A DNA stretch of 32,000 nucleotides from Mesorhizobium sp. (GTDB taxonomy: Bacteria > Pseudomonadota > Alphaproteobacteria > Rhizobiales > Rhizobiaceae). Shown here piece after piece: positions 1 to 26,954 of this stretch. The first letter of the stretch is position 1. Each line of letters starts with the position of its first letter. Under the pieces are notes generated by a model that was given only the letters and a program-made list of their open reading frames with translations, ran no database searches and was not told the origin of the DNA. Where the stretch lies: assembly GCA_027492275.1 (NCBI GenBank), contig JAPUFC010000093.1, forward strand, positions 1-32,000, given 5' to 3'. The translations under genes were made by a program, and so were the position numbers.

Positions 1-143
1 TCGGCTCGGAGTTCGGCAACCGCCATCACCAGTACGAGAAGTTCTACGGCGGCGCATCCTTCATCGTGAAGCAGAACATGCTGCGAAGCTACGACATGGC
101 CCGTGCAACAGGCCTCGTCGACAAGGCCCTCGGCCTGGGCTGA
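1..143 (+). CDS. 3' end of an HpaB-family (4-hydroxyphenylacetate 3-monooxygenase-like) flavin-dependent oxygenase component; 5' part lies outside the window
   Basis: The frame starting at nt 3 reads GSEFGNRHHQYEKFYGGASFIVKQNMLRSYDMARATGLVDKALGLG, with TGA at 141-143. GSEFGxRHxxYExxYxG matches the C-terminal block I recall from HpaB-type oxygenases. A flavin reductase gene starts 5 nt downstream. Confidence 0.6.
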   Translation, partial: GSEFGNRHHQYEKFYGGASFIVKQNMLRSYDMARATGLVDKALGLG

Positions 144-148
144 TCGCG

Positions 149-736
149 ATGGCCCCCTCCCAAGCTCCCGCTCTCGCCGCCGATGACGGTTGCGGCATCG
201 ACGTCGCGGACGGCCGTCACTTGCGCGATGCCTTCGGCCGCTTCGCGACCGGCATCGTCATCGTCACCACCCAATGGGGCGGGGAGCGGATCGGGGCGAC
301 GGTCAGCTCCTTCAACTCGGTGTCGCTGTCGCCGCCGCTGGTCTCCTTTTGCATCGCCCGCAGCGCCCACGCCATCGACGTGTGGGAAAACACGCCTTCC
401 TTCGGCATCAGCGTGCTGGCGCGCGATCAGGCGGAACTGTCGACCCGCTTCGCCCGCAGCCTGTCCGACAAATGGGCGGGCGTCGCGACGCGGCCCGCCG
501 CCCGCGTGCCCGCCCCGCTCATCGACGGCGCCCTGATGTGGCTCGAGTGCCAGGCCTATGCCCGCTACGACGGCGGCGACCACGTCATCCTGCTCGGCCG
601 CGTCGTCGCCGCGACCGTCAACAACCATGTCGCGCAGGAGCCGCTGCTCTTCTACGGCGCCGCCTACAGGCACCTCGCCCCCAAGACGCCGCAGGAGAAA
701 ATCCCCGACAACGCCATGTGGCTCCATGGCTGGTGA
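149..736 (+). CDS. NAD(P)H-flavin reductase (HpaC-like, flavin reductase-like FMN-binding domain)
   Basis: 195 aa ORF. FRDAFGRFATGIVIVTT...GATVSSFNSVSLSPPLVSFCI is the classic flavin_reduct domain signature. It sits directly after an HpaB-like gene. Confidence 0.85.
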   Translation: MAPSQAPALAADDGCGIDVADGRHLRDAFGRFATGIVIVTTQWGGERIGATVSSFNSVSLSPPLVSFCIARSAHAIDVWENTPSFGISVLARDQAELSTRFARSLSDKWAGVATRPAARVPAPLIDGALMWLECQAYARYDGGDHVILLGRVVAATVNNHVAQEPLLFYGAAYRHLAPKTPQEKIPDNAMWLHGW

Positions 737-2019: not shown

Positions 2020-3261
2020 ATGACCTTCACAGCCGGAAGCCATCTTGTAGAGCCATCCCGCGAGAACTTCGACTCCGAGCAGCATCTGGCGCATGCCAGG
2101 CAGCAGGCGGTCCGCCGCGGCTATGAGGATTTCCTCATCGTCGACGTCGATTCCCACCACTACGAAACCGAGGCTTTTCAGGAGATCGCCGAGTATATCG
2201 ACGATCCCGTCCTTCGCCTCGAGGCCAAGTATCAGGGCATGGCGCGGGGCGGCATCACCTCCATCGACGGCTCGTATCAGGAAATGACCGGACGCGTGAC
2301 GCGCTATCCGATGCGCCGCCGCGAGAAGACCCCGCCGGTGATCCACCGCGACATCACGCTGATGCGCCGGTGGATGGACTCCATGGGCGTCGACATGGCC
2401 TGCATGTTTCCCACGCCGATGCTCAACATCGCCACCTGCCCCAGGGTCGACGTCGAGACGGCGCTGGCCCGGGCCTACAATCGCTGGCTTTGCGACAATG
2501 TGCTGTCGCAGGAGCCGCGCCTGACATCGATGTTGTACCTGCCTTTCAACGATCCCGACGCATGCCTGAAGATGGTCGAGGATTTCGGCGATAGGAAGGG
2601 CGTCATCGGCTTCATGGTGACCGCCACCCACTACAAGGCCAACAACGACAACGCCTATATGAAAACCTACGCGGCCTTGCAGGAGCGGAACCTGCCGCTG
2701 GGGTTCCATGCGGCCTATACTTGGGGCGACAAGTCCACGACCCTGATGAACCGCTTCATCTCCGTCCATGCGCTCGGCTTCGTCTGGCACAACATGGTCC
2801 ACATGACGAACTGGCTGGTCAACGGCATGCCGGAACGCTTCCCGAAGCTGAAGACGCTTTGGATCGAAAGCGGGCTCGCCTGGGTGCCCTTCCTGATGCA
2901 GCGCCTGGACAACGAGTTCATGATGCGCAGTTCCGACGCGCCGCTGCTGAAGCGCAAGCCCAGCGACTACATGCGGGAGATGTTCTATACGTCGCAGCCG
3001 ATGGAAATGGTTGACAATCTGGACGCGCTTGAACTGACGTTCAAGATGATGAAGGCCGATTCCCAGCTTCTCTATTCTTCCGACTATCCGCACTGGGACA
3101 TGGACCTGCCGAGCACGATCTACGATCTGCCGTTCCTGCAGGAAGGCGCCAAGCGCGCCATCCTGGGGGGCAATGCGCAATCGCTCTTCGGCCTCGATCC
3201 CGTCTACGCCCCGTGGAAGCTGGCGCGCCGCTCCCAAAAGCAGGACGTTCCCGCTGCTTGA
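2020..3261 (+). CDS. Amidohydrolase_2 (ACMSD/COG2159-type TIM-barrel) metal-dependent hydrolase or non-oxidative decarboxylase
   Basis: 413 aa. It has the N-terminal LIVDVDSHHYE metal-ligand region and the C-terminal LYSSDYPHWD motif characteristic of PF04909-type enzymes. Confidence 0.85.
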   Translation: MTFTAGSHLVEPSRENFDSEQHLAHARQQAVRRGYEDFLIVDVDSHHYETEAFQEIAEYIDDPVLRLEAKYQGMARGGITSIDGSYQEMTGRVTRYPMRRREKTPPVIHRDITLMRRWMDSMGVDMACMFPTPMLNIATCPRVDVETALARAYNRWLCDNVLSQEPRLTSMLYLPFNDPDACLKMVEDFGDRKGVIGFMVTATHYKANNDNAYMKTYAALQERNLPLGFHAAYTWGDKSTTLMNRFISVHALGFVWHNMVHMTNWLVNGMPERFPKLKTLWIESGLAWVPFLMQRLDNEFMMRSSDAPLLKRKPSDYMREMFYTSQPMEMVDNLDALELTFKMMKADSQLLYSSDYPHWDMDLPSTIYDLPFLQEGAKRAILGGNAQSLFGLDPVYAPWKLARRSQKQDVPAA

Positions 3262-3318
3262 CACGGTCCCGCCGGGTGCACCATCCACACGTGTTGGGGG
3301 TGAACGGAAAGGACTGGT

Positions 3319-3798: not shown

Positions 3799-3845
3799 CG
3801 GCGGAATTTGATGTTGGGATAATGGGATTTTAGCGGAGGCGGCCT

Positions 3846-5276
3846 GTGCACATCGGCTATCGGGATCTGCGCGAATTCATCGGTCTTGTGGACGGGATCG
3901 GTGATCTCAGAAAGGTTTCCGGGGCATCGCTGGACCGGGAGATCGGAGCGATAACCGAGGTCGCCGCCGGCGATCCCCAGTGTCCGGCATTGCTGTTCGA
4001 CGACATACCCGGCCAGCCGCGTGGAAACCGGGTGTTCACCAATGCCACCGTGAACAGCAGGCGCGCCGCGCTTGCGCTGGGGCTCGACCCCGAGCTTCCC
4101 GCGCTCGACGCGCTGAAGGCGTGGAAGCAGAGGCGTTCCGGGCTGAAGCCGTTGGCTCCCGAGGTCACCAGCGACGTTCCGGTGATGGAGAACACGGTCT
4201 CCGGGAAGGACGTCGACCTGTCCCGCTTCCCGGCTCCCGTCTGGCACAAGCATGACGGCGGCCCCTATATCGGCTCGGGCAGCATCGTGCTGACGCGCGA
4301 CCCCGACACCGGCTGGGTGAATTCCTCGATCTACCGGGTCCAGGTGCATGACCGGAACGTCGTGACCGTGCAGTTCGACCACAATGGCAGGCACGGCGCG
4401 ATGATCGCGCGCAAATACTGGGACAAGGGCGAAGCGTGCCCCATCGTTCTGGTGCATGGGCAGGACCCGTCGCTGTTCATCGCCGGCTTCGAATATCTTC
4501 CGGACGGCGCCTCCGAGCTGGATTTCGCCGGGGCGATACGCGGCGCGCCGGTGGAGGTGTTCAAGGGGCCGCTGACGGGGATGCCCATTCCCGCGCGCGC
4601 CGAGATCGTGATGGAAGGCCGCCTGTTGCCGCTTGGCGAGAAGAGCCTGCCCGAAGGACCGTTCGGCGAGTTCACCGGCTATTACGCCGCCGACCGCCGG
4701 CCGGGGCCGGTCATGGAAATCGACGCCGTCTATCACCGCACCGATCCGATCCTGTTCGGCTCGCCGCCCTTGAAGCCGCCGCGCTTCCACTTCGGCCTGT
4801 CGTTCCGGGCGGCCGGCATCTGGGCCAATCTGGAGGCCGTCGGCGTCACCGACATCGTCGGCACGTGGCAGCACGTGTCGCAGCTCATGACGGTCATCGC
4901 GCTGAAGCAGCGCTATGCTGGGCACGCCAAGCGCGCCGGCCTGATCGCGGCGGCCAACACCTATATGGGGCGCATCGTGGTGCTGGTGGACGACGACGTC
5001 GATCCCACGAATCTCGCGGACGTGATGTGGGCCGTCACCACCCGGGCCGAGCCGTCCGAGGACGTCGACATCGTCCGCAATGCGTGGAGCTCTTCGCTGG
5101 ATCCGCGCATTTCGGCCGAGAATCGCGCGATCGGGCTGACCTCCAATTCCAAGATGATCATCGACGCCTGCATCCCCTTCGACCAGCTTGACGGCTATCC
5201 CAGGACGACGGCGCTGAGCATCGCGGAGAGCAACGAGGTCCGCAAGCGCTGGTCGGGCGTGTTCAGGTCGCGCTGA
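3846..5276 (+). CDS. UbiD-family (prFMN-dependent) aromatic acid decarboxylase
   Basis: 476 aa with a GTG start 6 nt after GGAGG. N-terminal YRDLREFIGLVD, VNSSIYRVQV, and the conserved EGPFGEFTGYY motif. Size is typical of UbiD/VdcC-type enzymes. Confidence 0.9.
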   Translation: MHIGYRDLREFIGLVDGIGDLRKVSGASLDREIGAITEVAAGDPQCPALLFDDIPGQPRGNRVFTNATVNSRRAALALGLDPELPALDALKAWKQRRSGLKPLAPEVTSDVPVMENTVSGKDVDLSRFPAPVWHKHDGGPYIGSGSIVLTRDPDTGWVNSSIYRVQVHDRNVVTVQFDHNGRHGAMIARKYWDKGEACPIVLVHGQDPSLFIAGFEYLPDGASELDFAGAIRGAPVEVFKGPLTGMPIPARAEIVMEGRLLPLGEKSLPEGPFGEFTGYYAADRRPGPVMEIDAVYHRTDPILFGSPPLKPPRFHFGLSFRAAGIWANLEAVGVTDIVGTWQHVSQLMTVIALKQRYAGHAKRAGLIAAANTYMGRIVVLVDDDVDPTNLADVMWAVTTRAEPSEDVDIVRNAWSSSLDPRISAENRAIGLTSNSKMIIDACIPFDQLDGYPRTTALSIAESNEVRKRWSGVFRSR

Positions 5277-8027: not shown

Positions 8028-9221
8028 ATGGGAAACCTGCGCGGCAAATACGCGATCGTCGGCATCGGCGAGACCAAGAGCGGAAAGCTGCCGGGCGTCA
8101 GCACGCTGGCGCTCCACACCGAGGCCGTGAAGCGCGCGATGGACGATGCGGGGCTTCGTCCCGACGAGATCGACGGCATGCTGGACAACCAGCCCCTGCA
8201 CGACCCTTTCCGCAACTATTCCATCGTCGTCGCTCATGCGCTGGGGATCAGCCCGACCTACAGCACCGACCTCGCGCTCGGCGGCGCGACACCGGTGCAG
8301 ATGGCCCAGCATGCCGCGATGGCGATCGACGCCGGCCTGGCGACGGCGGTGGCGTGCGTCCACGCCCGCAATTCGGCGTCGCTGCATCTGTTGCCGAAGA
8401 ACGGCGTCGGGTGCACGCGCGCCTATCATGGCGGCGTGCGCGACGGGGCGGATGATTTCGAGGATCCGTTCGGCCTGATGGCCGGTCCCGGCACGCATGC
8501 GTTCCTCGCGTCGCGCCATATGCATGATTTCGGCACGACCTCGGAGGATCTGGGGCAGATCGCGGTCTCGGCGCGCAGGCACGCCAATCTGAACCGAAGC
8601 GCGACCATGTACGCCAAGCCGCTGACGATCGAGGACCACCAGAGGTCGCGCTTCATCTCCGAGCCGCTGCGCCTCCTGGACTGCTCGCTCGTTTCCGACG
8701 GCGGCGGGGCGTTCATCGTCGTGTCCGCCGAGCGGGCGAAGGACCTGAAGAAAAAGCCCGTCTATATCCATGGCATGGGAAACCATCAGCCGTTTTCCAG
8801 CCTGAACGACGCCGAAAGCCTGACGACGCTGGGCGGCAAGGTGTCGTCGGACATGGCCTACCGCATGGCCGGCCTGGGTCCGAAGGACATGGATTTCGCC
8901 GAGCTCTACGACTGCTTCACGATCACCACGCTGATCACGCTGGAGGACTATGGGTTCTGTCCCAAGGGCGAGGGCGGGCGCTGGATCCAGGGCGGCCGGA
9001 TCGAGATAGGCGGCGAGCTGCCGGTCAACACGCATGGCGGTCTGCTGTCCCATGCGCATCTCGAGGGCGTGGCCCACATCACGGAGGCCGTGAAGCAGTT
9101 GCGCGGGGGAGAGGTCGAACCGGAGCGCCAGGTGGCCGATGCGAAGGTCGGCATCGTCAGCGGACATGGTGGCTACGCATCGACCCACACCACCATCATC
9201 CTCAGCAACGAGCAGGCGTAG
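8028..9221 (+). CDS. Thiolase-superfamily protein of the SCP-x/lipid-transfer (Ltp) type, apparently lacking the nucleophilic cysteine
   Basis: Start at ATG 8028, 7 nt after GGGAG; the ORF track extends it to 7956. KYAIVGIGETKSG..., ELYDCFTITTLITLEDYGFCPKGEGG, VNTHGGLLSHAHLEG are typical of SCP2-type thiolases. The nucleophile loop reads DLALGGATPVQM, with no Cys. Confidence 0.85.
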   Translation: MGNLRGKYAIVGIGETKSGKLPGVSTLALHTEAVKRAMDDAGLRPDEIDGMLDNQPLHDPFRNYSIVVAHALGISPTYSTDLALGGATPVQMAQHAAMAIDAGLATAVACVHARNSASLHLLPKNGVGCTRAYHGGVRDGADDFEDPFGLMAGPGTHAFLASRHMHDFGTTSEDLGQIAVSARRHANLNRSATMYAKPLTIEDHQRSRFISEPLRLLDCSLVSDGGGAFIVVSAERAKDLKKKPVYIHGMGNHQPFSSLNDAESLTTLGGKVSSDMAYRMAGLGPKDMDFAELYDCFTITTLITLEDYGFCPKGEGGRWIQGGRIEIGGELPVNTHGGLLSHAHLEGVAHITEAVKQLRGGEVEPERQVADAKVGIVSGHGGYASTHTTIILSNEQA

Positions 9222-9230
9222 GAGGGCGGC

Positions 9231-9659
9231 ATGGACGCTTCGAGCGAGACCGGGTATCGCAAACCCCTTCCGGAGATGGAGCCCGAGGAAAAGCCCTTCT
9301 GGGAAAGCCTCAGGCAGCACCGGATGAAGATCCAGCACTGCGAGGACTGCGGGAAATGGTGTTTCCTGCCGCGCACCATGTGCCCGCACTGCCTGTCGAC
9401 GAAGCTGGAGTGGAAGCCGGTCAGCGGACGGGGCAGGATCTTTGCGACGACGACGCAGCATCATCCCCCGTCGCCGGCTTTCGCCCAGGACGTTCCCTAC
9501 AACATCTCCCTGGTGGAGCTGGACGAGGGCGTGCGCATGATCACCAATGTGATCGGCTGCCCGGTCGAAAGCATCAAGATCGGCATGGCCGTGAACGTGG
9601 TCTATGACGACGTGACCGAGGATGTGACGCTGGCCAAGTTCAGGCCGGCAGGGGTCTAG
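9231..9659 (+). CDS. DUF35 OB-fold/zinc-ribbon protein (thiolase/aldolase partner, BbsA/ChsH2-DUF35-like)
   Basis: 142 aa. Four-Cys ribbon HCEDCGKWCFLPRTMCPHC, followed by an OB-fold-like part (GRIFATTT...ISLVELDEGVRMITNV). It starts 9 nt after the thiolase-like gene. Confidence 0.85.
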   Translation: MDASSETGYRKPLPEMEPEEKPFWESLRQHRMKIQHCEDCGKWCFLPRTMCPHCLSTKLEWKPVSGRGRIFATTTQHHPPSPAFAQDVPYNISLVELDEGVRMITNVIGCPVESIKIGMAVNVVYDDVTEDVTLAKFRPAGV

Positions 9660-9706
9660 TTGCCATCGGCGATCGCGATACGCTCAAAGCACGGGAGGAA
9701 GAGCAA

Positions 9707-10513
9707 GTGGCATCCAGCGCGGATCACGGGGCCGGTTTCGACGAGTTGATCTTCGAGGTCGCGGACGGCGTCGCGGTGATGACGATGAACCGCCCCAAGG
9801 CGCTGAACGCGCGGAACCGCAAGCTCCGTCGCGAACTCATCCGCGCCTGTGAGATCGTCGAGAAGTCGCCGGAGATCGTGGTCGGCGTTCTGACCGGTTC
9901 GGGCGAAAAGTCCTTCAGCGTCGGCCTCGACCTCAAGGAAGCGGCCGACGAGAGCTATGATCCCGTGACGTCGCGCTGGTCGATCGCGGACTCCGACGCC
10001 TCGGCGCTCGAGGCCGTGACCAAGCCGATGATCGCCGCGGTCAACGGCTACGCGCTCGGCGGCGGACTCGAGATCGCCCTGTGCTGCGACATGCGCGTCG
10101 CGGCGGACAATGCGGTGTTCGGATTTCCCGAGGCGTTGCGCGGCATCATGCCCGGAAGCGGCGGCACGCAGCGGCTGCCGCGGATCGTGGGGGTGACGGC
10201 GGCGATGGAGCTGCTGATGACGGGCGAGAGCATTTCGGCCGCGGACGCCGAGAGGATCGGCCTCGTCAGCCAGGTCGTCCCGCCGGCGGCGTTGCGGGAA
10301 ACCGCGATCGGGATGGCGCGACGCATCGCGCGCGGCGCGCCGGCGGCCACGCGCATGATCAAGGAAGCCGTGCTCAAGGGAATGGACATGCCTCTTGCGC
10401 AAGGCCTCGCCGTCGAGCGGGATCTGTCGAACCTGCTCTTTCTGACGCAGGACGCCCAGGAAGGGATGCGCGCTTTCGCCGAAAAGCGGCCTCCGGTCTG
10501 GCGCGGCCGATAG
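9707..10513 (+). CDS. Enoyl-CoA hydratase/isomerase (crotonase family)
   Basis: 268 aa with a GTG start after GGGAGGAAG. Both catalytic-Glu contexts are present: GYALGGGLEIALCCD and FGFPEALRGIMPGSGGTQRLPR. Confidence 0.9.
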   Translation: MASSADHGAGFDELIFEVADGVAVMTMNRPKALNARNRKLRRELIRACEIVEKSPEIVVGVLTGSGEKSFSVGLDLKEAADESYDPVTSRWSIADSDASALEAVTKPMIAAVNGYALGGGLEIALCCDMRVAADNAVFGFPEALRGIMPGSGGTQRLPRIVGVTAAMELLMTGESISAADAERIGLVSQVVPPAALRETAIGMARRIARGAPAATRMIKEAVLKGMDMPLAQGLAVERDLSNLLFLTQDAQEGMRAFAEKRPPVWRGR

Positions 10514-10534
10514 CCGGGGCGACAGGAGAGCGCC

Positions 10535-11728
10535 ATGTCTGCGAGACCGCGGCCCCATTCAGGCACTGCCGACGAAGAGGCGACGGCCGCGCCGCCCCTG
10601 AAGGGCATACGCGTGGTCGAGCTGACGACCGTCGTGACCGGCCCTTATGCCGGCATGATGCTCGCCGACCTCGGGGCCGACGTCGTCAAGGTCGAGCAGC
10701 CCGATGGCGGCGATCCCTTTCGCAGTTTCCAGGGCGGGCATTACGGCGCATATTTCTGCGCCTACAACCGCAACAAGCGCAGCATGACCCTGGATCTGCG
10801 CACGGAGGCCGGAGCTGCGGCGATCCGGGAGCTGATCGCGACGGCGGACGTCCTGCTGGACAACATGCGGCCCGGCGCGCTCGACCGGCTCGGCCTCGGC
10901 GACGCGGATATAAGCAGCCTCAACCCCGGCCTGATCCACTGCTCGATCACCGGCTTCGGTCCCGACGGTCCCTATGGCGCGAAGCCGGCCTACGATGCCG
11001 TCGCCCAGGCGCTCAGCGGCATGTCGAGCATGTTCTTCGATCCCGGCGACCCGCAGGTGTCCGGGCCGACCATCGCCGACAACGTGACCGCCCACAATGC
11101 CTGCCAGGCCGTCCTGGCCGCCCTGCTGGCGCGGGAGCGCGGCCAGCCTGCGCGCCGCATTCAGATCAACATGGTCGATGCCACGATCGCCTTCATGCCC
11201 GACATGTTCGGCGTCTGGTACAAGGACGGGCTCCTGCCGGGCGTCACCTCCCGGGCGCGTTACTCCCAGAGCTTCGCCTTTACTTGCAGCGACGACAAAA
11301 TGATCGCGCTGCATCTGTCGTCGCAGGACAAGTTCTGGAATATCTTCGTGGATGCTATCGAACGGCCGGATCTGTCCGCCGATCCGCGATTCTGCGACCG
11401 CAAGCTGCGCATCCAGAACTACGAAGAGCTCAGGAAGGCGCTGACCCCGATATTCCGGAGTCGCAGCCGGCCGGAATGGCTGGATTTCTTCGCCAGGATC
11501 GACGTGCCGATCGCCCCTGTCTATTCCATGGCCGAAGTCGCCGAGGACGCGCATGTCAAGCATCTTGGCACGTTCGTCACGGTTACGCACCCGCAGGAAG
11601 GGCCGCTGACGACGATCCGCCGTCCCATCTGGTTCGACGGTTCGAGGGACGACCAGCCGATGGCGCCGCCGCCGGCGTTGGGCGAGCACACCGAAGAAAT
11701 ACTGGCCGAGCTGCGGCTGAAGAAGTAG
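10535..11728 (+). CDS. Family III CoA-transferase (CaiB/BaiF/Frc-like)
   Basis: 397 aa. The N-terminal PLKGIRVVELTTVVTGPYAGMMLADLGADVVKVEQPDGGDPFR is the hallmark of family III CoA-transferases. Confidence 0.9.
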   Translation: MSARPRPHSGTADEEATAAPPLKGIRVVELTTVVTGPYAGMMLADLGADVVKVEQPDGGDPFRSFQGGHYGAYFCAYNRNKRSMTLDLRTEAGAAAIRELIATADVLLDNMRPGALDRLGLGDADISSLNPGLIHCSITGFGPDGPYGAKPAYDAVAQALSGMSSMFFDPGDPQVSGPTIADNVTAHNACQAVLAALLARERGQPARRIQINMVDATIAFMPDMFGVWYKDGLLPGVTSRARYSQSFAFTCSDDKMIALHLSSQDKFWNIFVDAIERPDLSADPRFCDRKLRIQNYEELRKALTPIFRSRSRPEWLDFFARIDVPIAPVYSMAEVAEDAHVKHLGTFVTVTHPQEGPLTTIRRPIWFDGSRDDQPMAPPPALGEHTEEILAELRLKK

Positions 11729-11803: not shown

Positions 11804-12475
11804 CTACAATTGGCGCGGCCTGGCATCGCCGCCGCTCATCCCGCGAACCGTGTCTTCCGATGTTCCGGTGGGGCGCAGCTCGAAGATGTCGGTGACGGAA
11901 GTATAGTCCAGGTAACCCATCCGCGCCAGGGGCCGGATCTTCAGCATATCGATCTTTCCGTCGTCTCCGATGACGTCGTCGTCGATGTGGATTCCCACGA
12001 CGCGCCCGATGACGACGGAGTTGAAGAGCGTCCTGGTGTCGGAAGGCAGGACGATCGTCTGGTAATGCTTGCATTCCAGGCTGATCGGACATTGCTTGAC
12101 GCGGGGCGGCCTCACCAGGCGGCACGGCTCGGCGGTCAATCCGGCTTCCGCCATCTCGTCGACCCCCGATTCCTCGATCATGCTGGTATGGATGATCGCG
12201 TCCCTCAGGGCATAGGTCGCTATGTTGAAGACGAATTCGCCGGAAGACTCCGCATTGGCGACACTGTCGCCCCGGCGTCCGTCCCAGCGCGTGTTGGCCG
12301 AGAACATGACATAGGGCGGGTCCCAGCCCAGGATGTTGCTTTGGCTGAAGGGGGCGAGGTTGACGACATCGTCGCGGTTCACCGTCGAGATCCAGGCGAT
12401 CGGACGGGGCACGACACAGGATTTGAAGGGGTTGAAAGGCAGCCCGTGATTGTTTTTGGCCGGTTCGTAGAACAT
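11804..12475 (-). CDS. Flavin reductase-like FMN-binding domain protein
   Basis: 223 aa. FKSCVVPRPIAWISTVNRDDVVNLAPFSQSNILGWDPPYVMFSAN matches the flavin_reduct family. Confidence 0.8.
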   Translation of the reverse strand: MFYEPAKNNHGLPFNPFKSCVVPRPIAWISTVNRDDVVNLAPFSQSNILGWDPPYVMFSANTRWDGRRGDSVANAESSGEFVFNIATYALRDAIIHTSMIEESGVDEMAEAGLTAEPCRLVRPPRVKQCPISLECKHYQTIVLPSDTRTLFNSVVIGRVVGIHIDDDVIGDDGKIDMLKIRPLARMGYLDYTSVTDIFELRPTGTSEDTVRGMSGGDARPRQL

Positions 12476-17213: not shown

Positions 17214-18227
17214 TCATCCGATCGCGTCCGCGGCCCGTCGGGCGAACTTTTCTGCGAGGTCTCCCCTGGTCGCGGCGTCCTGCGCGGCGGCGGTGCCGGC
17301 CCGCGCCCGGTCGGCGATGCCGACGAAGATGACGGCGAAACGGAACAGCGCGAAGGCCACGTGGAAGCGCATCAGCGCCGGCGTCGGCACGGCCGAGGCA
17401 TAGTAGCGCGCCACGAACGCGGCCTGCCCGGGCAGTTTCATCCCGGCGAGATCGAGGCCGAGGATGCCGCCATACTCGTCGGGCGCGGTGTGCCAGGGCA
17501 TGCAGCAGAAGCCGAGGTCGGCCAGCGGATGGCCGAGCGTCGACAGCTCCCAGTCGAGAATGGCGACGACCTCCGCCTTCGTCGGGTGGAACAGAATGTT
17601 GCCGAGGCGAAAATCGCCATGCGCGATCGCCACCCGCCCGTCATCCTCCGGCTGGTTGTCGCGCAGCCAGGCGATGACGCGGTCGAGCGCGGGGATGCGG
17701 GGCGAGGGCGATTCGTCGTACTGCCGCGACCAGCGGGCGATCTGACGCGCGAAGTAGCTGCCGGGCTTGCCGTAGTCGGCGAGACCGATGGCGGCGGGAT
17801 CGACGGCGTGCAGCTTCGCCATCGCGTCGGCCATTGCGAAATAGAGCGGCGCGCGCTCGTCAGGCGCGGCCTGCGCCAGCGAGCACGCGTGGAACACGCG
17901 GCCCTCCACCCGCTCCATCAGGTAGAAGGGCGTGCCGATCAGGGCAGGGTCCTCGTGCAACAGCAGGGCTTTCGGCACCGGCACGCCGGTCTGCTCCAGC
18001 GCCTTGAGAACGCGATACTCGCGCTCGACCGCGTGGGCGCCGGGCAGGATGTCGCCGGCCGGCTTCTTGCGCAGCACCAGGCGGCGCGCTCCGTGGCCGA
18101 CGAAGAAGGTTGGGTTGGACTGCCCGCCGCCGACGCGCTCGATCGACAGCGGCGCGGAACCGAAGCGGTCGTCCAGGAAGCCGCCGAACCGTGCCACCGA
18201 GAATTCGGCGATGGTCTCGTCGCGCAT
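17214..18227 (-). CDS. APH/ChoK-fold phosphotransferase of the ACAD10/11 N-terminal-like (LvaA-like) type
   Basis: 337 aa, starting at MRDETIAEF inside the ORF 17214..19313. IERVGGGQSNPTFFV, VLRKKP, the catalytic HGDFRLGNILF motif and the ILDWELS metal-binding motif are all present. Confidence 0.85.
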   Translation of the reverse strand: MRDETIAEFSVARFGGFLDDRFGSAPLSIERVGGGQSNPTFFVGHGARRLVLRKKPAGDILPGAHAVEREYRVLKALEQTGVPVPKALLLHEDPALIGTPFYLMERVEGRVFHACSLAQAAPDERAPLYFAMADAMAKLHAVDPAAIGLADYGKPGSYFARQIARWSRQYDESPSPRIPALDRVIAWLRDNQPEDDGRVAIAHGDFRLGNILFHPTKAEVVAILDWELSTLGHPLADLGFCCMPWHTAPDEYGGILGLDLAGMKLPGQAAFVARYYASAVPTPALMRFHVAFALFRFAVIFVGIADRARAGTAAAQDAATRGDLAEKFARRAADAIG

Positions 18228-18229
18228 TC

Positions 18230-19843
18230 TCAACCGTCCTGCTTGCGCAATTGCCCGCGCAGCATGAACTTCTGGATCTTGCCGGTCGCGGTCTTCGGGA
18301 TTTCGGCGAAGACGAACAGCGCCGGCACCTTGTAGCCGGCGAGGTGCTGGCGGCAGAAGGCGCGCAGCTCCTCGCCCGTCGCCGAAGCGCCGTCGCGCAG
18401 CTCGATGAAGGCGGCCGGCGTCTCGCCCCATTTGTCGTGCGGCGCCGCGACCACGGCGGCAAGCAGCACGGCCGGATGGCGGTGCAGCACGCCCTCGATT
18501 TCGAGGCTGGAAATGTTCTCGCCGCCGGAAATGATGACGTCCTTGGAACGGTCGCGGATTTCGATGTTGCCGTCGGGGTGGCGGACGGCGAGGTCGCCCG
18601 TGTGGAACATGCCGCCCGCGAACGCCTTTTCCGTCGTCTCCGCATCGCGGGCGTAACCGGCCATCAGCGTGTTGCCCGCCAGCACGATCTCGCCCATGGT
18701 CGTTCCGTCCGCCGGCACGTCGGTCCCGGTCTCGTCGATGACGCGCACGCGGCTGGCGGTGATGTGGCGCACCCCCTGCTTGGCCAGCTCCCTCGCCACC
18801 TCGCCCGCCGGCAGCGCCCGCTCCGCCTCCGTCAGCGCGCGCAGTGTCGCCGGCCCGTAGGATTCGGTCAGGCCGTAGAGATGGGTCAGGTCGAAGCCCA
18901 GTGCGCCGAGCTGCTCGATCAGCGCGGCGGTCGGCGCGGCCCCGCCGGTGGCCACGGCGATGCGTCGCGAGGCATCGCGGCCGGCCCGCGCGGGATGGTT
19001 GAGCATCATGGTGAGCACGACCGGCGCGCAGGACAGATGCGTCACCCCATGCGCCTCGATCGCGGGGAAGATGAGCGCCGGATCCGGCCGGTCGAGGCAG
19101 ACGTGCAGGCCGCCGGCCGCCGTCACCGCCCAGGTGTGGCACCAGCCATTGCAGTGGAACATCGGCAGCGTCCACAGATAGACCGAGCGCGCGGTCAGGC
19201 CGAGCGCCAGCACGTTGCCGAGCGCGTTGAGATAGGCGCCGCGATGATGGTAGACGACGCCCTTGGGCCGGCCGGTGGTTCCCGACGTGTAGTTGACGCA
19301 TATGGGCTGCCACTCGTCGGCGATCGCCGACAGGTCGAGCGCCGCGTCGGTTTCGTCGTCCGCCAGCAGGTCGAGCAGGGAAGCGCCCTGCGCCGCCGCC
19401 GCTTCCCCGCCGACCGGGAGCCGAAGCAGGGCCACGCCGGCGCTCGCCGCCGCCGCGTGCGCCACGGCCAGGCAGCCGTCGTCCGCGATCATGAGCCGGC
19501 TTTGCGAATGGGACAGGATGTAGCCCACCGTATCGGCGTCGAGCCGCGTGTTGATGGTGTTCAGCACCGCGCCGACCATCGGCACGGCGTAATGCGCGGC
19601 CAGCATCTCGGGCCGGTTCGACGCCATGACCGACACCACGTCCCCGGCCGTCACGCCGGCCGAAGTCAGGAACCGCGCCATGCGCGCGACCATCCGGGCG
19701 AAGGCCGCGTAGGTCCAGGTCCGGCCGTTCCAGGCGACGGCCGGGCGCTCGGAATGCACCTCAGCCGACCGGACCAGGAATTCGACCGGGGTCAGCGGCA
19801 CATGGTTGGCGGCGCGCGGCCGCAAATGCTCCTCCACTCGCAT
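18230..19843 (-). CDS. AMP-forming acyl-CoA synthetase (short/medium-chain type)
   Basis: 537 aa, starting at MRVEEHL inside the ORF 18230..20884 (GGAGG ribosome-binding site). YTSGTTGRPKGV, LPMFHCNGW, YGLTESYG, GMFHTGDL and PKTATGKIQK motifs. Confidence 0.9.
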   Translation of the reverse strand: MRVEEHLRPRAANHVPLTPVEFLVRSAEVHSERPAVAWNGRTWTYAAFARMVARMARFLTSAGVTAGDVVSVMASNRPEMLAAHYAVPMVGAVLNTINTRLDADTVGYILSHSQSRLMIADDGCLAVAHAAAASAGVALLRLPVGGEAAAAQGASLLDLLADDETDAALDLSAIADEWQPICVNYTSGTTGRPKGVVYHHRGAYLNALGNVLALGLTARSVYLWTLPMFHCNGWCHTWAVTAAGGLHVCLDRPDPALIFPAIEAHGVTHLSCAPVVLTMMLNHPARAGRDASRRIAVATGGAAPTAALIEQLGALGFDLTHLYGLTESYGPATLRALTEAERALPAGEVARELAKQGVRHITASRVRVIDETGTDVPADGTTMGEIVLAGNTLMAGYARDAETTEKAFAGGMFHTGDLAVRHPDGNIEIRDRSKDVIISGGENISSLEIEGVLHRHPAVLLAAVVAAPHDKWGETPAAFIELRDGASATGEELRAFCRQHLAGYKVPALFVFAEIPKTATGKIQKFMLRGQLRKQDG

Positions 19844-19854
19844 CGTCGCCTCCG

Positions 19855-21057
19855 TCAGGCTGCCTGCCACGTCCAGAAACCATTCTCCTCGGCGTCGAGA
19901 TGGGTGTTCAGCACCATCTTGTGCACCTCGTCCGCCCCGTCGACCAGCCGTGCCTGCCGCGCATAGCGATAGATCCATTCCAGCACCGTGTCCTTGGAAT
20001 AGCCGCGCGCGCCGTTGATCTGGATCGCGGTGTCGGCGGCTTGGTGAAGCAGGTTGGCGACATGCACCTTGGCCATCGACACCTCCTTGCGGGCGAACGA
20101 GCCCTGGTCGAGCGCCCAGGCCGCCTTCATGACCAGCAGCCGGCCGATCTCGATCTTCAAGGCGAGGTCGCCCAGCATCATCTGGATGGACTCCCGGTCC
20201 GCCAGCCGCCTGCCGAAGCCGGTGCGTTCCGCGGCATAGGCGCGCGCGATCTCGACGCAGCGCCTGGACAGGCCGAGCCAGCGCATGCAATGCGTCAGCC
20301 GCGCCGGCCCGAGGCGGATCTGCGTCACCTTGAGCCCGTCTCCCTCCTTCATCAGGACGTTGCCGGCCGGTACTTCGAGCCCGTCGAAGACCAGCTCGCA
20401 ATGGCCTCCGTGCTCCTCCGGGCCCATGATGTCGATGCGCCGCTCGATCGTCCAGCCGGGCTGGTCGCGGTCGAACAGGAAGGCGGTCAGCCCCTTGCGC
20501 GGATCGTCCGAGGTCCTGGCGAGCAGGATGAAGTGCTGCGCTTCCGCAGCGCCGGTGATGAACCATTTGCGGCCGCTGATGACATAGGCGTCGCCGCGCT
20601 TCTCGGCGCGGGTCATCATCATCGACGGGTCGGAGCCGCCGCCCGGCATGGGCTCGGTCATGGCGAAGGCGGAGCGCACCTTGCCCTCCACGATCGGCTT
20701 CAGCCAGCGCGCCTTCTGCGCCTCCGTTCCCACCGCTTCCAGAACCATCATGTTGCCGTCGTCGGGAGCGGCGGAATTGAAGATCACCGGGCCGAAGATG
20801 GAGCGGTTCATGGCCTCGTAGCAGACCGCCATGCCGACCTTGCCGAGCCCCTGGCCGCCCGTTTCCGGCTTGAGCTGCAGGCACCAGAGACCCTCGGCCT
20901 TCGCCTCGGCGCGCAGCCGGTCGGCAAGGTCGAGGCGGATGTTCTCATGCGCGTCGTAGCTGGAGCGGTCCGCCTCGAGGGGAAGCAGCCTGTCCCCGAC
21001 GAAGGCCGCGATGCGCGAGCGGAATTCCTCGATACGCGGGGAGACGGTGAAATCCAT
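19855..21057 (-). CDS. Acyl-CoA dehydrogenase family protein, FadE2/ACAD10-11 C-terminal-like
   Basis: 400 aa, starting at MDFTVSPRIEEF inside the ORF 19855..21843. AFAMTEPMPGGGSDPS, ISGRKWFITGA, RLGPARLTHCMRWLG and LVDGADEVHKMVL match the FadE2-like subgroup as I recall it. Confidence 0.9.
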   Translation of the reverse strand: MDFTVSPRIEEFRSRIAAFVGDRLLPLEADRSSYDAHENIRLDLADRLRAEAKAEGLWCLQLKPETGGQGLGKVGMAVCYEAMNRSIFGPVIFNSAAPDDGNMMVLEAVGTEAQKARWLKPIVEGKVRSAFAMTEPMPGGGSDPSMMMTRAEKRGDAYVISGRKWFITGAAEAQHFILLARTSDDPRKGLTAFLFDRDQPGWTIERRIDIMGPEEHGGHCELVFDGLEVPAGNVLMKEGDGLKVTQIRLGPARLTHCMRWLGLSRRCVEIARAYAAERTGFGRRLADRESIQMMLGDLALKIEIGRLLVMKAAWALDQGSFARKEVSMAKVHVANLLHQAADTAIQINGARGYSKDTVLEWIYRYARQARLVDGADEVHKMVLNTHLDAEENGFWTWQAA

Positions 21058-21080
21058 GCCGGTGTCCTTTCCGCGGCTGT

Positions 21081-21830
21081 TCAGAGGCTCGACACGAGAT
21101 GGCCGCCATCGACCGCCAGCGACGTTCCGGTGATGTAGCGCCCCGCATCGGTCGCCAGCAGGAGCAGCGCGCCGTCGAGGTCGCCGGGCTGGCCGAGCCG
21201 GCGCTGCGGGATGCGGCGCACAAGCGCCTGGCCGGCGTCGCTGTTGAAGAAGTCCCGGTTGAGATCGGTCTCGACATAGCCGGGGCACAGCGCGTTGACC
21301 CTGATGCCGAAGCGCGCCCATTCCAGCGCCAGCGCCTCGGTCAGCCGCACCACGCCGGCCTTCGAGGCGGCATAGCTCGCCACCGATCCGGCCACGCGGT
21401 GGCCGAGGATCGAGGCGACGTTGATGATCGAGCCGCCCCCGCCATCCTTCATGCGCCTCGCGGCGGCCTGCGCGACCAGGAAGACGCCGCGCAGGTTCGT
21501 GTCCACGACGCGGTCCCATCCGGCCGCCGTGATGTCCAGCGCCGGCCTGGCGTCTGTCAGGCCGGCATTGTTGACCACCACGTCGACCCGCACGCCGGCA
21601 CGGTCGAGCGCGGCGAAGGCGTCGTCGACCGACCTTTCGTCGGTCACGTCGAGCGCCACGGCCTCGGCCGCTCCGCCGGCCTCCTCGATGTCGCGCTTCA
21701 GCGCGTGCAGCGCATCGATGCGGCGCGCCGCCAGGACCACGGAGCGACCGCTGGAGGCGAGCGTGCGGGCGAAGTGCGCGCCGAGCCCGGACGAGGCTCC
21801 AGTCACGAGGGCCGAACCCGGCGAATTCAT
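21081..21830 (-). CDS. Short-chain dehydrogenase/reductase (classical SDR)
   Basis: 249 aa. TGASSGLG cofactor motif, NNAG, and the catalytic Ser...YAASK. Confidence 0.9.
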   Translation of the reverse strand: MNSPGSALVTGASSGLGAHFARTLASSGRSVVLAARRIDALHALKRDIEEAGGAAEAVALDVTDERSVDDAFAALDRAGVRVDVVVNNAGLTDARPALDITAAGWDRVVDTNLRGVFLVAQAAARRMKDGGGGSIINVASILGHRVAGSVASYAASKAGVVRLTEALALEWARFGIRVNALCPGYVETDLNRDFFNSDAGQALVRRIPQRRLGQPGDLDGALLLLATDAGRYITGTSLAVDGGHLVSSL

Positions 21831-21849
21831 CCAAGCCTCCCACTTTCCG

Positions 21850-21873
21850 AGCGAGTGTTCGCTTTATTTTATA
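21850..21873 (-). promoter_or_regulatory. Candidate -10 box and overlapping palindromic operator for the SDR-ACAD-ligase-kinase operon
   Basis: The minus strand reads TATAAAAT (21873-21866), immediately followed by the palindrome AGCGA-acac-TCGCT (21863-21850). This lies 20-43 nt upstream of ATG 21830 (GGGAGG ribosome-binding site). Confidence 0.3.
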
Positions 21874-22138
21874 AGCTTTGCCTGCGCAAGAAAAGATTGA
21901 AGGGAGCCAAAGGCGCGGCCACCACCCGGCGGTCGTCTTGCGGGCCGTTCGATCGCGCGCCAGCCGCCGCAGGCCTCGAAGCTTGGAAGCGCCGCGAGGG
22001 GCCTGGCCGCGGACCCGAAGCGCGCGCGAGGCCGGCGATCGGGCTCCTCCGAGTCCACGCTAGTCGCGGCGGCGCGGGCGGGATATTGCAGTTAATCACC
22101 ATTGCCCCGAAAGTCATGACGATCCGCGGGAGACCATC

Positions 22139-25744
<3,606 letters not shown>

Positions 25745-26128: not shown

Positions 26129-26338
26129 TTATGCGGCCTGGAGGTTCTCGGCCGAGCTCTTGCCGCTACGCTTGTCCTGCACGACCTCGAAGCTGAGCTT
26201 CTGGCCCTCGACCACGCTGCGCATTCCTGCGCGCTCGACGGCCGAGATGTGGACGAACACGTCCTGCCCGCCCGAGTCGGGCTGGATGAAGCCGAAGCCC
26301 TTGGTCGCGTTGAACCACTTGACTGTTCCAGTATTCAT
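26129..26338 (-). CDS. cspA: Cold-shock protein, CspA family
   Basis: 69 aa: [34 protein letters not shown], containing the RNP1 (KGFGFI) and RNP2 (VFVHI) motifs. Confidence 0.95.
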
Positions 26339-26705: not shown

Positions 26706-26954
26706 ATGCAGATCATCGTACGCGACAACAATGTCGATCAGGCTCTCAAGGTGCTCAAGCGCAGGCTGCAACGCGAAGGCGTCCTGCGGGAACTGAAGGC
26801 GAGGCGCTTCTACGAAAAGCCGTCCGAACGCCGCGTCCGTGAAAAGGCCGAGGCGGTGAGGCGCGGCCGCAAAGCCGCTCGCCGGCTGGCGCAGAAGGAA
26901 GGCCTGCTGCCGGCGCCCAAGAAGCGCGTCGTCGCCGGCCCGCCCAGGCGCTGA
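26706..26954 (+). CDS. rpsU: 30S ribosomal protein S21
   Basis: 82 aa: [53 protein letters not shown], the typical alphaproteobacterial S21. GAAGGAAG ribosome-binding site. Confidence 0.95.

Follow-up and report, generated by a model that had tools for sequence, protein, structure and literature searches.

A four-gene operon on the minus strand of a 32,000-nucleotide (nt) stretch of Mesorhizobium sp. DNA (contig JAPUFC010000093.1, positions 1 to 32,000; hereafter the window) probably feeds a 4-oxo or 4-hydroxy carboxylic acid into beta-oxidation by first adding a phosphate group and then eliminating it. From its first gene to its last, the operon encodes a classical short-chain dehydrogenase/reductase (SDR; positions 21081-21830, 249 amino acids, aa), an acyl-CoA dehydrogenase family protein (ACAD; 19855-21057, 400 aa), an AMP-forming acyl-CoA synthetase (ACS; 18230-19843, 537 aa), and a kinase of the APH fold (17214-18227, 337 aa). 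It appears to be a relative of the Pseudomonas lva (levulinate) module in which LvaA and LvaB have been swapped for a single-subunit kinase of the class that is fused to the ACAD in mammalian ACAD10/11. A preliminary description of this DNA had proposed an equivalent of the lva route for such an acid, and every part of that proposal that could be put to a sequence-based test held.

In the route that we propose, the LvaE-like synthetase would convert the acid to its CoA thioester, and the LvaD-like SDR, a putative 4-oxoacyl-CoA reductase, would reduce 4-oxoacyl-CoA to 4-hydroxyacyl-CoA, a step that a 4-hydroxy acid would skip. The ACAD10/11-type kinase, a predicted 4-hydroxyacyl-CoA kinase, would then phosphorylate the 4-hydroxyl in an ATP-dependent reaction. 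Finally, the FAD-containing ACAD-family enzyme, a candidate 4-phosphoacyl-CoA phosphate-eliminating enzyme, would release the phosphate to leave a 2-enoyl-CoA in a redox-neutral cycle, using an Asp base and an Arg/His/Arg pocket. In LvaC and ACAD10/11, the Asp base deprotonates C2, a hydride passes to FAD, the phosphate leaves, and the product is re-reduced by FADH2 to the 2-enoyl-CoA with no net redox change (PMC11342911, PMC12440821). The chemistry is thus taken from published work on the Lva, ACAD10/11 and B. pseudomallei enzymes, and we infer that the window operon performs it; what we observed here are family and subfamily assignments, catalytic residues, and gene linkage.

The four genes are separated by only 23, 11 and 2 nt, and on recomputed coordinates these gaps agree exactly with those given in the preliminary description. 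Third-position GC is 0.90-0.91 in all four frames against a regional GC of 0.68-0.70, the Pfam E-values of the four proteins range from 4e-38 to 1e-74, and the gene order is found again in unrelated genomes, so the four open reading frames are real genes and not chance. A Shine-Dalgarno-like purine run lies 5' of each of the four start codons. The NCBI record places the synthetase start 27 nt further upstream (546 aa), where the gene would overlap that of the ACAD by 16 nt; homologues in loci L007 and L008 favor the 537-aa start. Flanking genes vary between genomes, and the operon behaves as a self-contained module.

The kinase matches the Pfam APH family (E = 1.6e-53), and its closest solved structures are PDB 3dxp (1e-87, 47% identity) and the kinase domain of mouse ACAD11 (2e-65, 38% identity). 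All three motifs read earlier from the sequence were located in it on the minus strand: GGGQSNPTFF at residues 33-42 (window 18102-18131), HGDFRLGN at residues 203-210 (17598-17621), and DWE at residues 225-227 (17547-17555). By alignment, kinase residues D205, N210, R161, R69/E70 and D225-W-E227 correspond to ACAD11 D220, N225, R176, the alpha-C pair and DWE. According to Rashan et al. 2025 (PMC12440821; see also PMC13596139 for the kinase motifs), D220 and N225 are catalytic in ACAD11 and R176 contacts CoA; DWE is the metal motif. Numbering in the ACAD11 paper equals the PDB chain index plus 1, and the alpha-C arginine that it calls R86 could not be reconciled with the chain numbering. D205, N210, D225-W-E227, G34-T40 (GGQSNPT) and R161 are each kept in 82 or more of the 91 family members compared, with the CoA-contacting R161 kept in 90 of the 91, and R69/E70 is near-invariant as well. 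The family is large, comprising 1,486 clusters (50% identity) at E <= 1e-30. With these structural matches and conserved catalytic and CoA-contact residues, the kinase is, as far as sequence can place it, of the single-subunit ACAD10/11 type (class I), in agreement with the earlier assignment, and is not LvaA-like.

The ACAD contains all three ACAD Pfam domains, and its best solved relatives are 4hr3 and ACAD11 (~227 bits), compared with 180 bits for the best ordinary (MCAD-type) enzyme. PDB sequence matches of 1e-65 or better place both key enzymes. The segment RLGPARLTHCMR (20281-20316, minus strand; ACAD residues 248-259) holds an Arg and the HCMR phosphate-binding helix and aligns with ACAD11 R626-R637. 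Further on, VDGADEVH (19921-19944, minus strand) carries a catalytic Asp where ACADs usually have Glu and aligns with ACAD11 D753 (LVDGADEVH in the window, LADGPDEVH in ACAD11). The protein therefore keeps the equivalents of ACAD11 R626, H634, R637 and D753. ACAD11 loses its activity when the HCMR motif, the Arg upstream of it or the catalytic Asp is mutated (PMC12440821). We aligned the ACADs of 83 kinase-containing loci, including 12 ordinary ACAD paralogues from the same loci. The four residues were present in every kinase-linked ACAD and in none of the 12 ordinary paralogues, which use a Glu base. As the pocket and catalytic residues are conserved, the best reading is that the window ACAD shares the phosphate-elimination chemistry of LvaC and ACAD10/11.

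In neighbor-joining trees with bootstraps, the kinase-linked ACADs fall into three subfamilies, each monophyletic in 100 of 100 replicates. S1 includes ACAD11, 4hr3 and the Burkholderia type and has the motifs APDTGNME (in full, FNCxAPDTGNME), GRLGPGRIHHCMR and ADGPDEVH; S2 includes the window ACAD (APDDGNMM, RLGPARLTHCMRW and VDGADEVH); and S3 includes LvaC (APDEGNIH, RLAPARLTHCMRW and YDGPSEVH). S2 and S3 group together with 76-81% bootstrap support, and the three subfamilies group apart from ordinary ACADs with 86-95%. At the positions of the S1 motifs the window ACAD has FNSAAPDDGNMM, RLGPARLTHCMRW and VDGADEVH, and it lies outside S1. Identity within the S1 clade is ~60% or more; the window ACAD shares 36% identity with mouse ACAD11 and with a Burkholderia S1 enzyme, and ~25% with canonical ACAD paralogues. 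The preliminary description had assigned it to the ACAD10/11 subtype. The Asp base and the Arg/His/Arg phosphate pocket are indeed there, but the subtype is S2, nearer to LvaC (43%) than to ACAD11 (36%).

The same residues bear on a more mundane account, in which an ordinary beta-oxidation cluster happens to stand beside an aminoglycoside-resistance kinase or another small-molecule kinase. The kinase does belong to the Pfam family APH, and public annotation offers nothing more specific than 'phosphotransferase family protein' and 'acyl-CoA dehydrogenase family protein'. However, against the NCBIfam model of APH(3') resistance enzymes (APH_3p), the kinase scored 43.6 bits and fell far below the cut-off of 205; the ACAD has an Asp base and an HCMR pocket, which canonical ACADs lack; and synteny is kept across orders. 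This account is scarcely credible, and we excluded it on the residue tests.

The two remaining enzymes resemble those of levulinate metabolism. As lva references we used, in place of PP_2791 to PP_2795, the proteins of two complete operons found by tblastn of PLSDB plasmids. The SDR (Pfam adh_short_C2, 4e-60) contains the motifs TGASSGLG, NNAG and YAASK, shares its top NCBIfam match, NF005402, with LvaD, and is 58-60% identical to LvaD of the two operons. LvaD-like SDRs (24 sequences, including that of the window) were monophyletic against 30 generic SDRs in 99 of 100 bootstraps. The synthetase (Pfam AMP-binding, 1e-74, plus AMP-binding_C) is 49-50% identical to LvaE and, like LvaE, passes the NCBIfam model NF006020 (697.7 bits for the window protein, cut-off 677); 12 LvaE-like synthetases separated from 12 generic ones in 100 of 100 bootstraps. 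Both proteins thus cluster with their Lva counterparts, as had been suggested. PDB matches of the SDR and the synthetase gave no clue to the substrate. Because these two enzymes group with LvaD and LvaE, our leading guess is a short-chain acid of the levulinate or 4-hydroxyvalerate type.

To see how the genes are linked elsewhere, a genome scan collected 80 class I kinase loci from many orders, which with three earlier loci made the sample of 83. A signature ACAD (S1, S2 or S3) adjoins the class I kinase in 51 of them, and the two genes are adjacent on the same strand in 43 of the 61 untruncated loci (70%). The adjacent ACAD is of S1 in 29 loci (7 of these preceded by a histidine phosphatase), of S2 in 18 and of S3 in 4. 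A further 6 loci have an S1 ACAD elsewhere, and 26 have no signature ACAD, 14 of them being truncated. Among the 18 S2 clusters, 10 have the order SDR-ACAD-kinase, 6 the window order SDR-ACAD-ACS-kinase and 2 ACAD-kinase; the order SDR-ACAD-(ACS)-kinase is therefore found in 16 of the 18, and in 16 of the 83 sampled genomes. Its carriers include Rhizobiaceae, Arvimicrobium, Allorhizobium, Bosea, Microvirga, Lichenihabitans, several Rhodobacteraceae, Amaricoccus, and a beta-proteobacterial metagenome-assembled genome (MAG). Arvimicrobium flavum, Allorhizobium pseudoryzae, Roseovarius gahaiensis and Thioclava atlantica are carriers available in culture. S2 ACADs are also borne on plasmids of Mesorhizobium, Chelatococcus, Methylobacterium, Sulfitobacter, Azospirillum and Paracoccus, always under a generic annotation, and in Azospirillum B510 and loci L094 and L096 the S2 ACAD is paired with a class II (LvaA-type) kinase and DUF6285. 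The preliminary description had suspected a distinct rhizobial variant. The arrangement is indeed one of its own, but it is not specifically rhizobial, occurring also in Rhodobacteraceae, Bosea, Microvirga, Lichenihabitans and the beta-proteobacterial MAG.

Several observations weigh against the proposed phosphorylation-elimination route or its assignment to levulinate-type acids. The S2 ACAD is only 36% identical to ACAD11 and 43% to LvaC, it differs from S1 enzymes next to the pocket (APDDGNMM versus APDTGNME, THCMRW versus HHCMR), and all trees are neighbor-joining trees built from a modest sample. The window has no transporter or regulator that can be linked to the operon. Some S2 clusters lack the SDR (L011, L016, Chelatococcus pTAD1, L094 and L096), which makes the reduction step optional. 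Finally, some genomes hold S2 beside S1 or S3, which suggests that the subfamilies are not interchangeable and that the substrate may differ from levulinate. In Methylobacterium aquaticum MA-22A, S2 and S1 lie on different replicons (plasmids 1p and 2p; L092 and L093), with the S1 operon encoding an ADP-forming CoA ligase, an MDR reductase, an ACAD, a kinase and a crotonase. In Pseudosulfitobacter pseudonitzschiae, an S2 gene lies on a ~290-kb plasmid and an S3-like gene on a ~210-kb plasmid.

Such coexistence, together with the separation of S2 as a clade in 100% of bootstraps and its own motif variants, would fit the same chemistry acting on gamma-functionalized acids of another class than levulinate and 4-hydroxyvalerate, for example longer oxylipin-derived 4-oxo or 4-hydroxy acids or opened gamma-lactones, in which case the SDR might invert or epimerize the 4-hydroxyl via the ketone instead of just admitting a keto acid. 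The kinase of ACAD10 prefers the R-4-hydroxy isomer (PMC11342911), and many of the carriers are diatom-associated roseobacters. In Roseovarius gahaiensis (L012), a gene of the NADP-dependent alkenal/one oxidoreductase family (2191-3309, plus strand; ADH_N_2 and ADH_zinc_N) lies upstream of the cluster, beyond its TetR gene; this one case hints at substrates of the enone or 4-oxo-2-enoate type. On the other hand, the SDR and synthetase sit firmly within the LvaD and LvaE groups, C4-C6 acids are the substrates of LvaE according to the passages of PMC6692424 that quote Rand 2017, and we saw no sequence sign of a particular alternative. We therefore regard a different substrate class as unlikely, and continue to favor short-chain 4-oxo or 4-hydroxy acids.

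Another challenge comes from a 2025-26 preprint (PMC13596139) reporting that ACAD10/11 kinase domains of C. elegans and human, and several prokaryotic homologues, phosphorylate chimyl alcohol, with some of these activities stimulated by acetyl-CoA. The preprint names 3dxp, the best solved match of the window kinase, among the closest structures, and a second PDB match of the window kinase, 9o56 (5e-50), may be the crystal structure of that study. The kinase could accordingly be a lipid-alcohol kinase that acts on 1-O-alkylglycerol or monoacylglycerol in lipid salvage. Its setting points elsewhere: the gene starts 2 nt past the synthetase stop, a distance typical of translational coupling, here to a CoA ligase; 70% of untruncated loci link the kinase to an ACAD with the phosphate pocket; and the Arg that contacts CoA is all but invariant (90 of 91 sequences). 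Moreover, the genes next to its relatives encode TRAP transporters for carboxylates, enoyl-CoA hydratases and CoA ligases, with no glycerolipid genes among those annotated, and ACAD10/11 phosphorylate only the CoA ester of a 4-hydroxy acid and not the free acid (PMC12440821). The operon context thus argues against an alkylglycerol role here, which we consider highly improbable, although a side activity is possible. Phosphorylation of a 4-hydroxyacyl-CoA remains the preferred reading of the kinase.

A kinase clade specific to S2 was also considered and dropped: the kinase tree follows taxonomy, without a split by the type of partner ACAD, and the parts thus recombine freely. It is conceivable, and we offer the idea tentatively, that bacteria hold a mix-and-match toolkit for gamma-phospho-elimination. 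Within it, the S2 form of the window, which on this reading has its own SDR at its side whenever its kinase is of class I, would be a functionally separate pathway for another substrate class. The toolkit would comprise two kinase classes (class I, or the LvaA type with LvaB/DUF6285) and three ACAD subfamilies (S1, S2 and S3), to which an SDR, a synthetase, a histidine phosphatase or one of various transporters could be added. The finding that some genomes keep two or three forms together fits this idea. If it is true, the conserved operon context would argue that the ACAD10-type kinase originally served to phosphorylate acyl-CoA and not ether lipids; for the dispute over ACAD10 substrates (4-hydroxyacyl-CoA or ether-lipid alcohols), this context provides genomic evidence of an independent kind.

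The chemistry has been published before, as have both kinase classes and unfused bacterial pairs, and the hybrid operon does not overturn current understanding. What appear to be undescribed in the searchable literature are the pairing of an ACAD10/11-type kinase, in the absence of LvaB, with an SDR, a synthetase and an ACAD that are Lva-like, the S2 subfamily as a distinct clade, and the identity of LvaB with DUF6285. The operon had been put forward as a distinct, uncharacterized variant. That stands for the hybrid form, which is apparently undescribed, but the novelty is smaller than supposed: in the passages of Habe 2019 that cite it (PMC6692424), Rand 2017 is credited with noting lvaABCD homologues in Alpha-, Beta- and Gammaproteobacteria. 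For annotation, the assignment would give a specific, testable role to generically labeled genes that are widespread in soil and marine Alphaproteobacteria. For pathway evolution, it suggests that the Pseudomonas levulinate route and the mammalian ACAD10/11 route have interchangeable parts. For engineering, a kinase that should need no LvaB could simplify the use of levulinate or gamma-valerolactone.

Upstream of the SDR gene lies an intergenic leader (21831-22138), presumed to be the promoter region of the operon on the minus strand and shared with a divergent, frameshifted oxoprolinase-like gene. The leader contains the palindrome CGAACACTCGCTCG (21848-21861), 18 nt upstream of the SDR start, which occurs only once in the 32-kb window. 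A palindrome of the consensus CGA(A/G)C(A/G)nn(C/T)GCTCG lies 5' of the leading gene of each of the four S2 clusters with a divergent TetR gene (L008, L012, L019 and L026), the TetR proteins being 51-68% identical among themselves, and the same motif is found in Azospirillum B510. The palindrome is therefore likely to be an operator for a TetR-type repressor. No TetR that matches the palindrome-linked ones is encoded in the 32-kb window, and the regulator must be encoded outside it or have been lost. An alignment of upstream DNA across relatives gave no conservation other than the palindrome, which was seen by direct inspection. We found no sigma-70 consensus in the leader, no sigma-54 consensus near the operon, and no sigma-54 activator among the window genes; the last of these had been noted before.

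Transporters accompany several related clusters. A TRAP (DctQMP) carboxylate transporter lies directly downstream of three synthetase-containing clusters (L010, L012 and L019), and the S2 cluster of Chelatococcus pTAD1 is preceded by genes for a sigma-54 regulator, a sensor kinase and a TAXI-TRAP transporter. The preliminary description had pointed to a PotD-type importer and a MarR regulator next to the operon. They are adjacent, the importer being an ABC transporter with SBP_bac_1/8 matches, and are oriented convergently with respect to the kinase gene, but are probably unrelated to the operon. We rejected them as parts of it, since they are on the opposite strand and absent beside every related cluster.

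The divergent neighbor (22139-25744, plus strand) is a fused hydantoinase/oxoprolinase (A+B) gene that seems to be broken. It has no in-frame start between a stop at 22140-22142 and an ATG at 22350; if the G5 run at 22154-22158 were shortened by one G, the TTG at 22139 would come into frame and a terminus would be restored. Its Hydantoinase_B match moves to another frame after ~25274. The NCBI record has no gene call for this neighbor. The gene is either a pseudogene or the product of homopolymer errors in the MAG from which the window comes. Between it and an Abhydrolase_9 membrane protein, a stretch of lower GC (0.60) holds genes for a cold-shock protein (CSD; 26129-26338, minus strand) and ribosomal protein S21 (26706-26954, plus strand). 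Elsewhere the window contains a cluster of SCP2-type thiolase-like, DUF35 (zf-ChsH2/OB), enoyl-CoA hydratase and family III CoA-transferase genes, as well as two flavin reductases, a UbiD-family decarboxylase, CoxG, amidohydrolases and a formamidase-like gene. These acyl-CoA- and aromatic-type genes, at 8028-11728 (plus), 11804-12475 (minus), 2-736 (plus) and 3834-5276 (plus), have no evident link to the operon.

Among known systems, canonical ACADs (MCAD and SCAD) and APH(3') kinases have the same folds and Pfam families as the window proteins; the canonical ACADs differ in having a Glu base and no phosphate pocket, where the window ACAD has both Asp and pocket. A much closer comparison is with the lva operons (lvaRABCDEFG in the P. 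putida group; Rand et al. 2017), which appear to encode the same four enzyme activities. Searches with DUF6285 led to Azospirillum-type loci and to loci of the type kinase-DUF6285-ACS-ACAD (S2), and tblastn of plasmids with an S1 ACAD likewise gave no Pseudomonas lva operon. Of the two operons that served as references, that of Stutzerimonas stutzeri plasmid NZ_CP078510.1 consists of PrpR and, divergent from it, APH, DUF6285, a histidine phosphatase, ACAD, SDR, ACS, DUF485 and ActP. P. aeruginosa plasmid p12939-PER has the same layout without the histidine phosphatase, its small gene is named in RefSeq as 'lvaB, 4-hydroxypentanoyl-CoA kinase subunit', and its lva proteins are identical to those of P. 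putida HB3267 and P. plecoglossicida.

The window SDR belongs to the LvaD group and the synthetase to the LvaE group, and LvaC is 43-44% identical to the window ACAD, with which it shares the Asp base and the helix RL.PARLTHCMRWLG; the two lie in sister subfamilies, LvaC in S3 and the window ACAD in S2. The kinases differ more. LvaA is only 30-34% identical to the window kinase locally and 25% globally, and the LvaA-type (class II) kinases separate from class I in 100% of bootstraps. Their motifs are SGGAIQENW, HRDYRTGN and DWEF, where the window has GGQSNPT, HGDFRLGN and DWELST, and class II lacks an equivalent of R161. As had been described, the gene order also differs (SDR-ACAD-ACS-kinase in the window, kinase-LvaB-ACAD-SDR-ACS in lva). 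The lva system further has a PrpR-like sigma-54 activator (LvaR), a sigma-54 promoter, and a DUF485/ActP transporter (LvaFG), all of which the window operon lacks.

LvaB corresponds to Pfam DUF6285 (PF19802), a family on which, as on PP_2792, a literature search returned nothing relevant. DUF6285 follows a class II kinase in every context examined and was never beside a class I kinase in these contexts (L091, L094, L096, L097, L099, L100 and L101); examples are the genes at L101 6591-6947, L100 7887-8246 and L091 8255-8623. The window contains no DUF6285 match (best tblastn E 0.085), in keeping with the earlier remark that no LvaB-like small reading frame is present, and replacement of the two-part LvaA/LvaB kinase by a single-subunit class I kinase would explain this absence.

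A histidine phosphatase, of which we found none in the window, recurs beside the kinases of other systems. It lies upstream of the kinase in Burkholderia-type S1 clusters (7 of the 83 loci: L071, L075, L079, L043, L065, L042 and L081), is part of the S. stutzeri lva operon (L100 8243-9004), is split by an IS21 element in Azospirillum B510 (L091 8620-8943 and 11406-11960), and has been reported in a P. citronellolis cluster (Habe 2019, PMC6692424). Perhaps it is an equivalent, though not a homologue, of the HAD phosphatase domain in ACAD10.

In the supplement of Paquay 2024 (PMC11342911), the P. putida ACAD Q88K54 is labeled LvaC, has an S1-type motif and is 56-62% identical to ACAD10/11. The ACADs of the retrieved lva operons (L100 9001-10173 and L101 7001-8173) are of S3 and 33% identical to mouse ACAD11, so either that label or the lva-operon ACAD may refer to a different P. 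putida protein.

The unfused pair of Burkholderia pseudomallei, kinase Q63VL0 and ACAD Q63VL1, can stand in for the matching domains of ACAD10 in vitro (Paquay 2024, PMC11342911). We compared the window operon with relatives of these two proteins. Like the window, they have an unfused class I kinase, and the sampled Burkholderia and Paraburkholderia kinases are 48% identical to that of the window and each adjoin a signature ACAD. Their loci have the form (histidine phosphatase)-kinase-ACAD; the ACAD belongs to S1 and shares 36% identity with the window enzyme, and there is no conserved SDR or LvaE-like synthetase.

Mammalian ACAD10 and ACAD11 are fused enzymes of 4-hydroxy acid catabolism (PMC12440821, PMC11342911). 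Their kinase is of the same class as that of the window (38% identity), which keeps every named catalytic and CoA-contact residue of ACAD11, while their ACAD is of S1 and that of the window, 36% identical, is of S2. Where mammals fuse kinase and ACAD, the window has separate genes with the synthetase gene between them; it has no HAD domain and, relative to ACAD10/11, adds an SDR and a synthetase.

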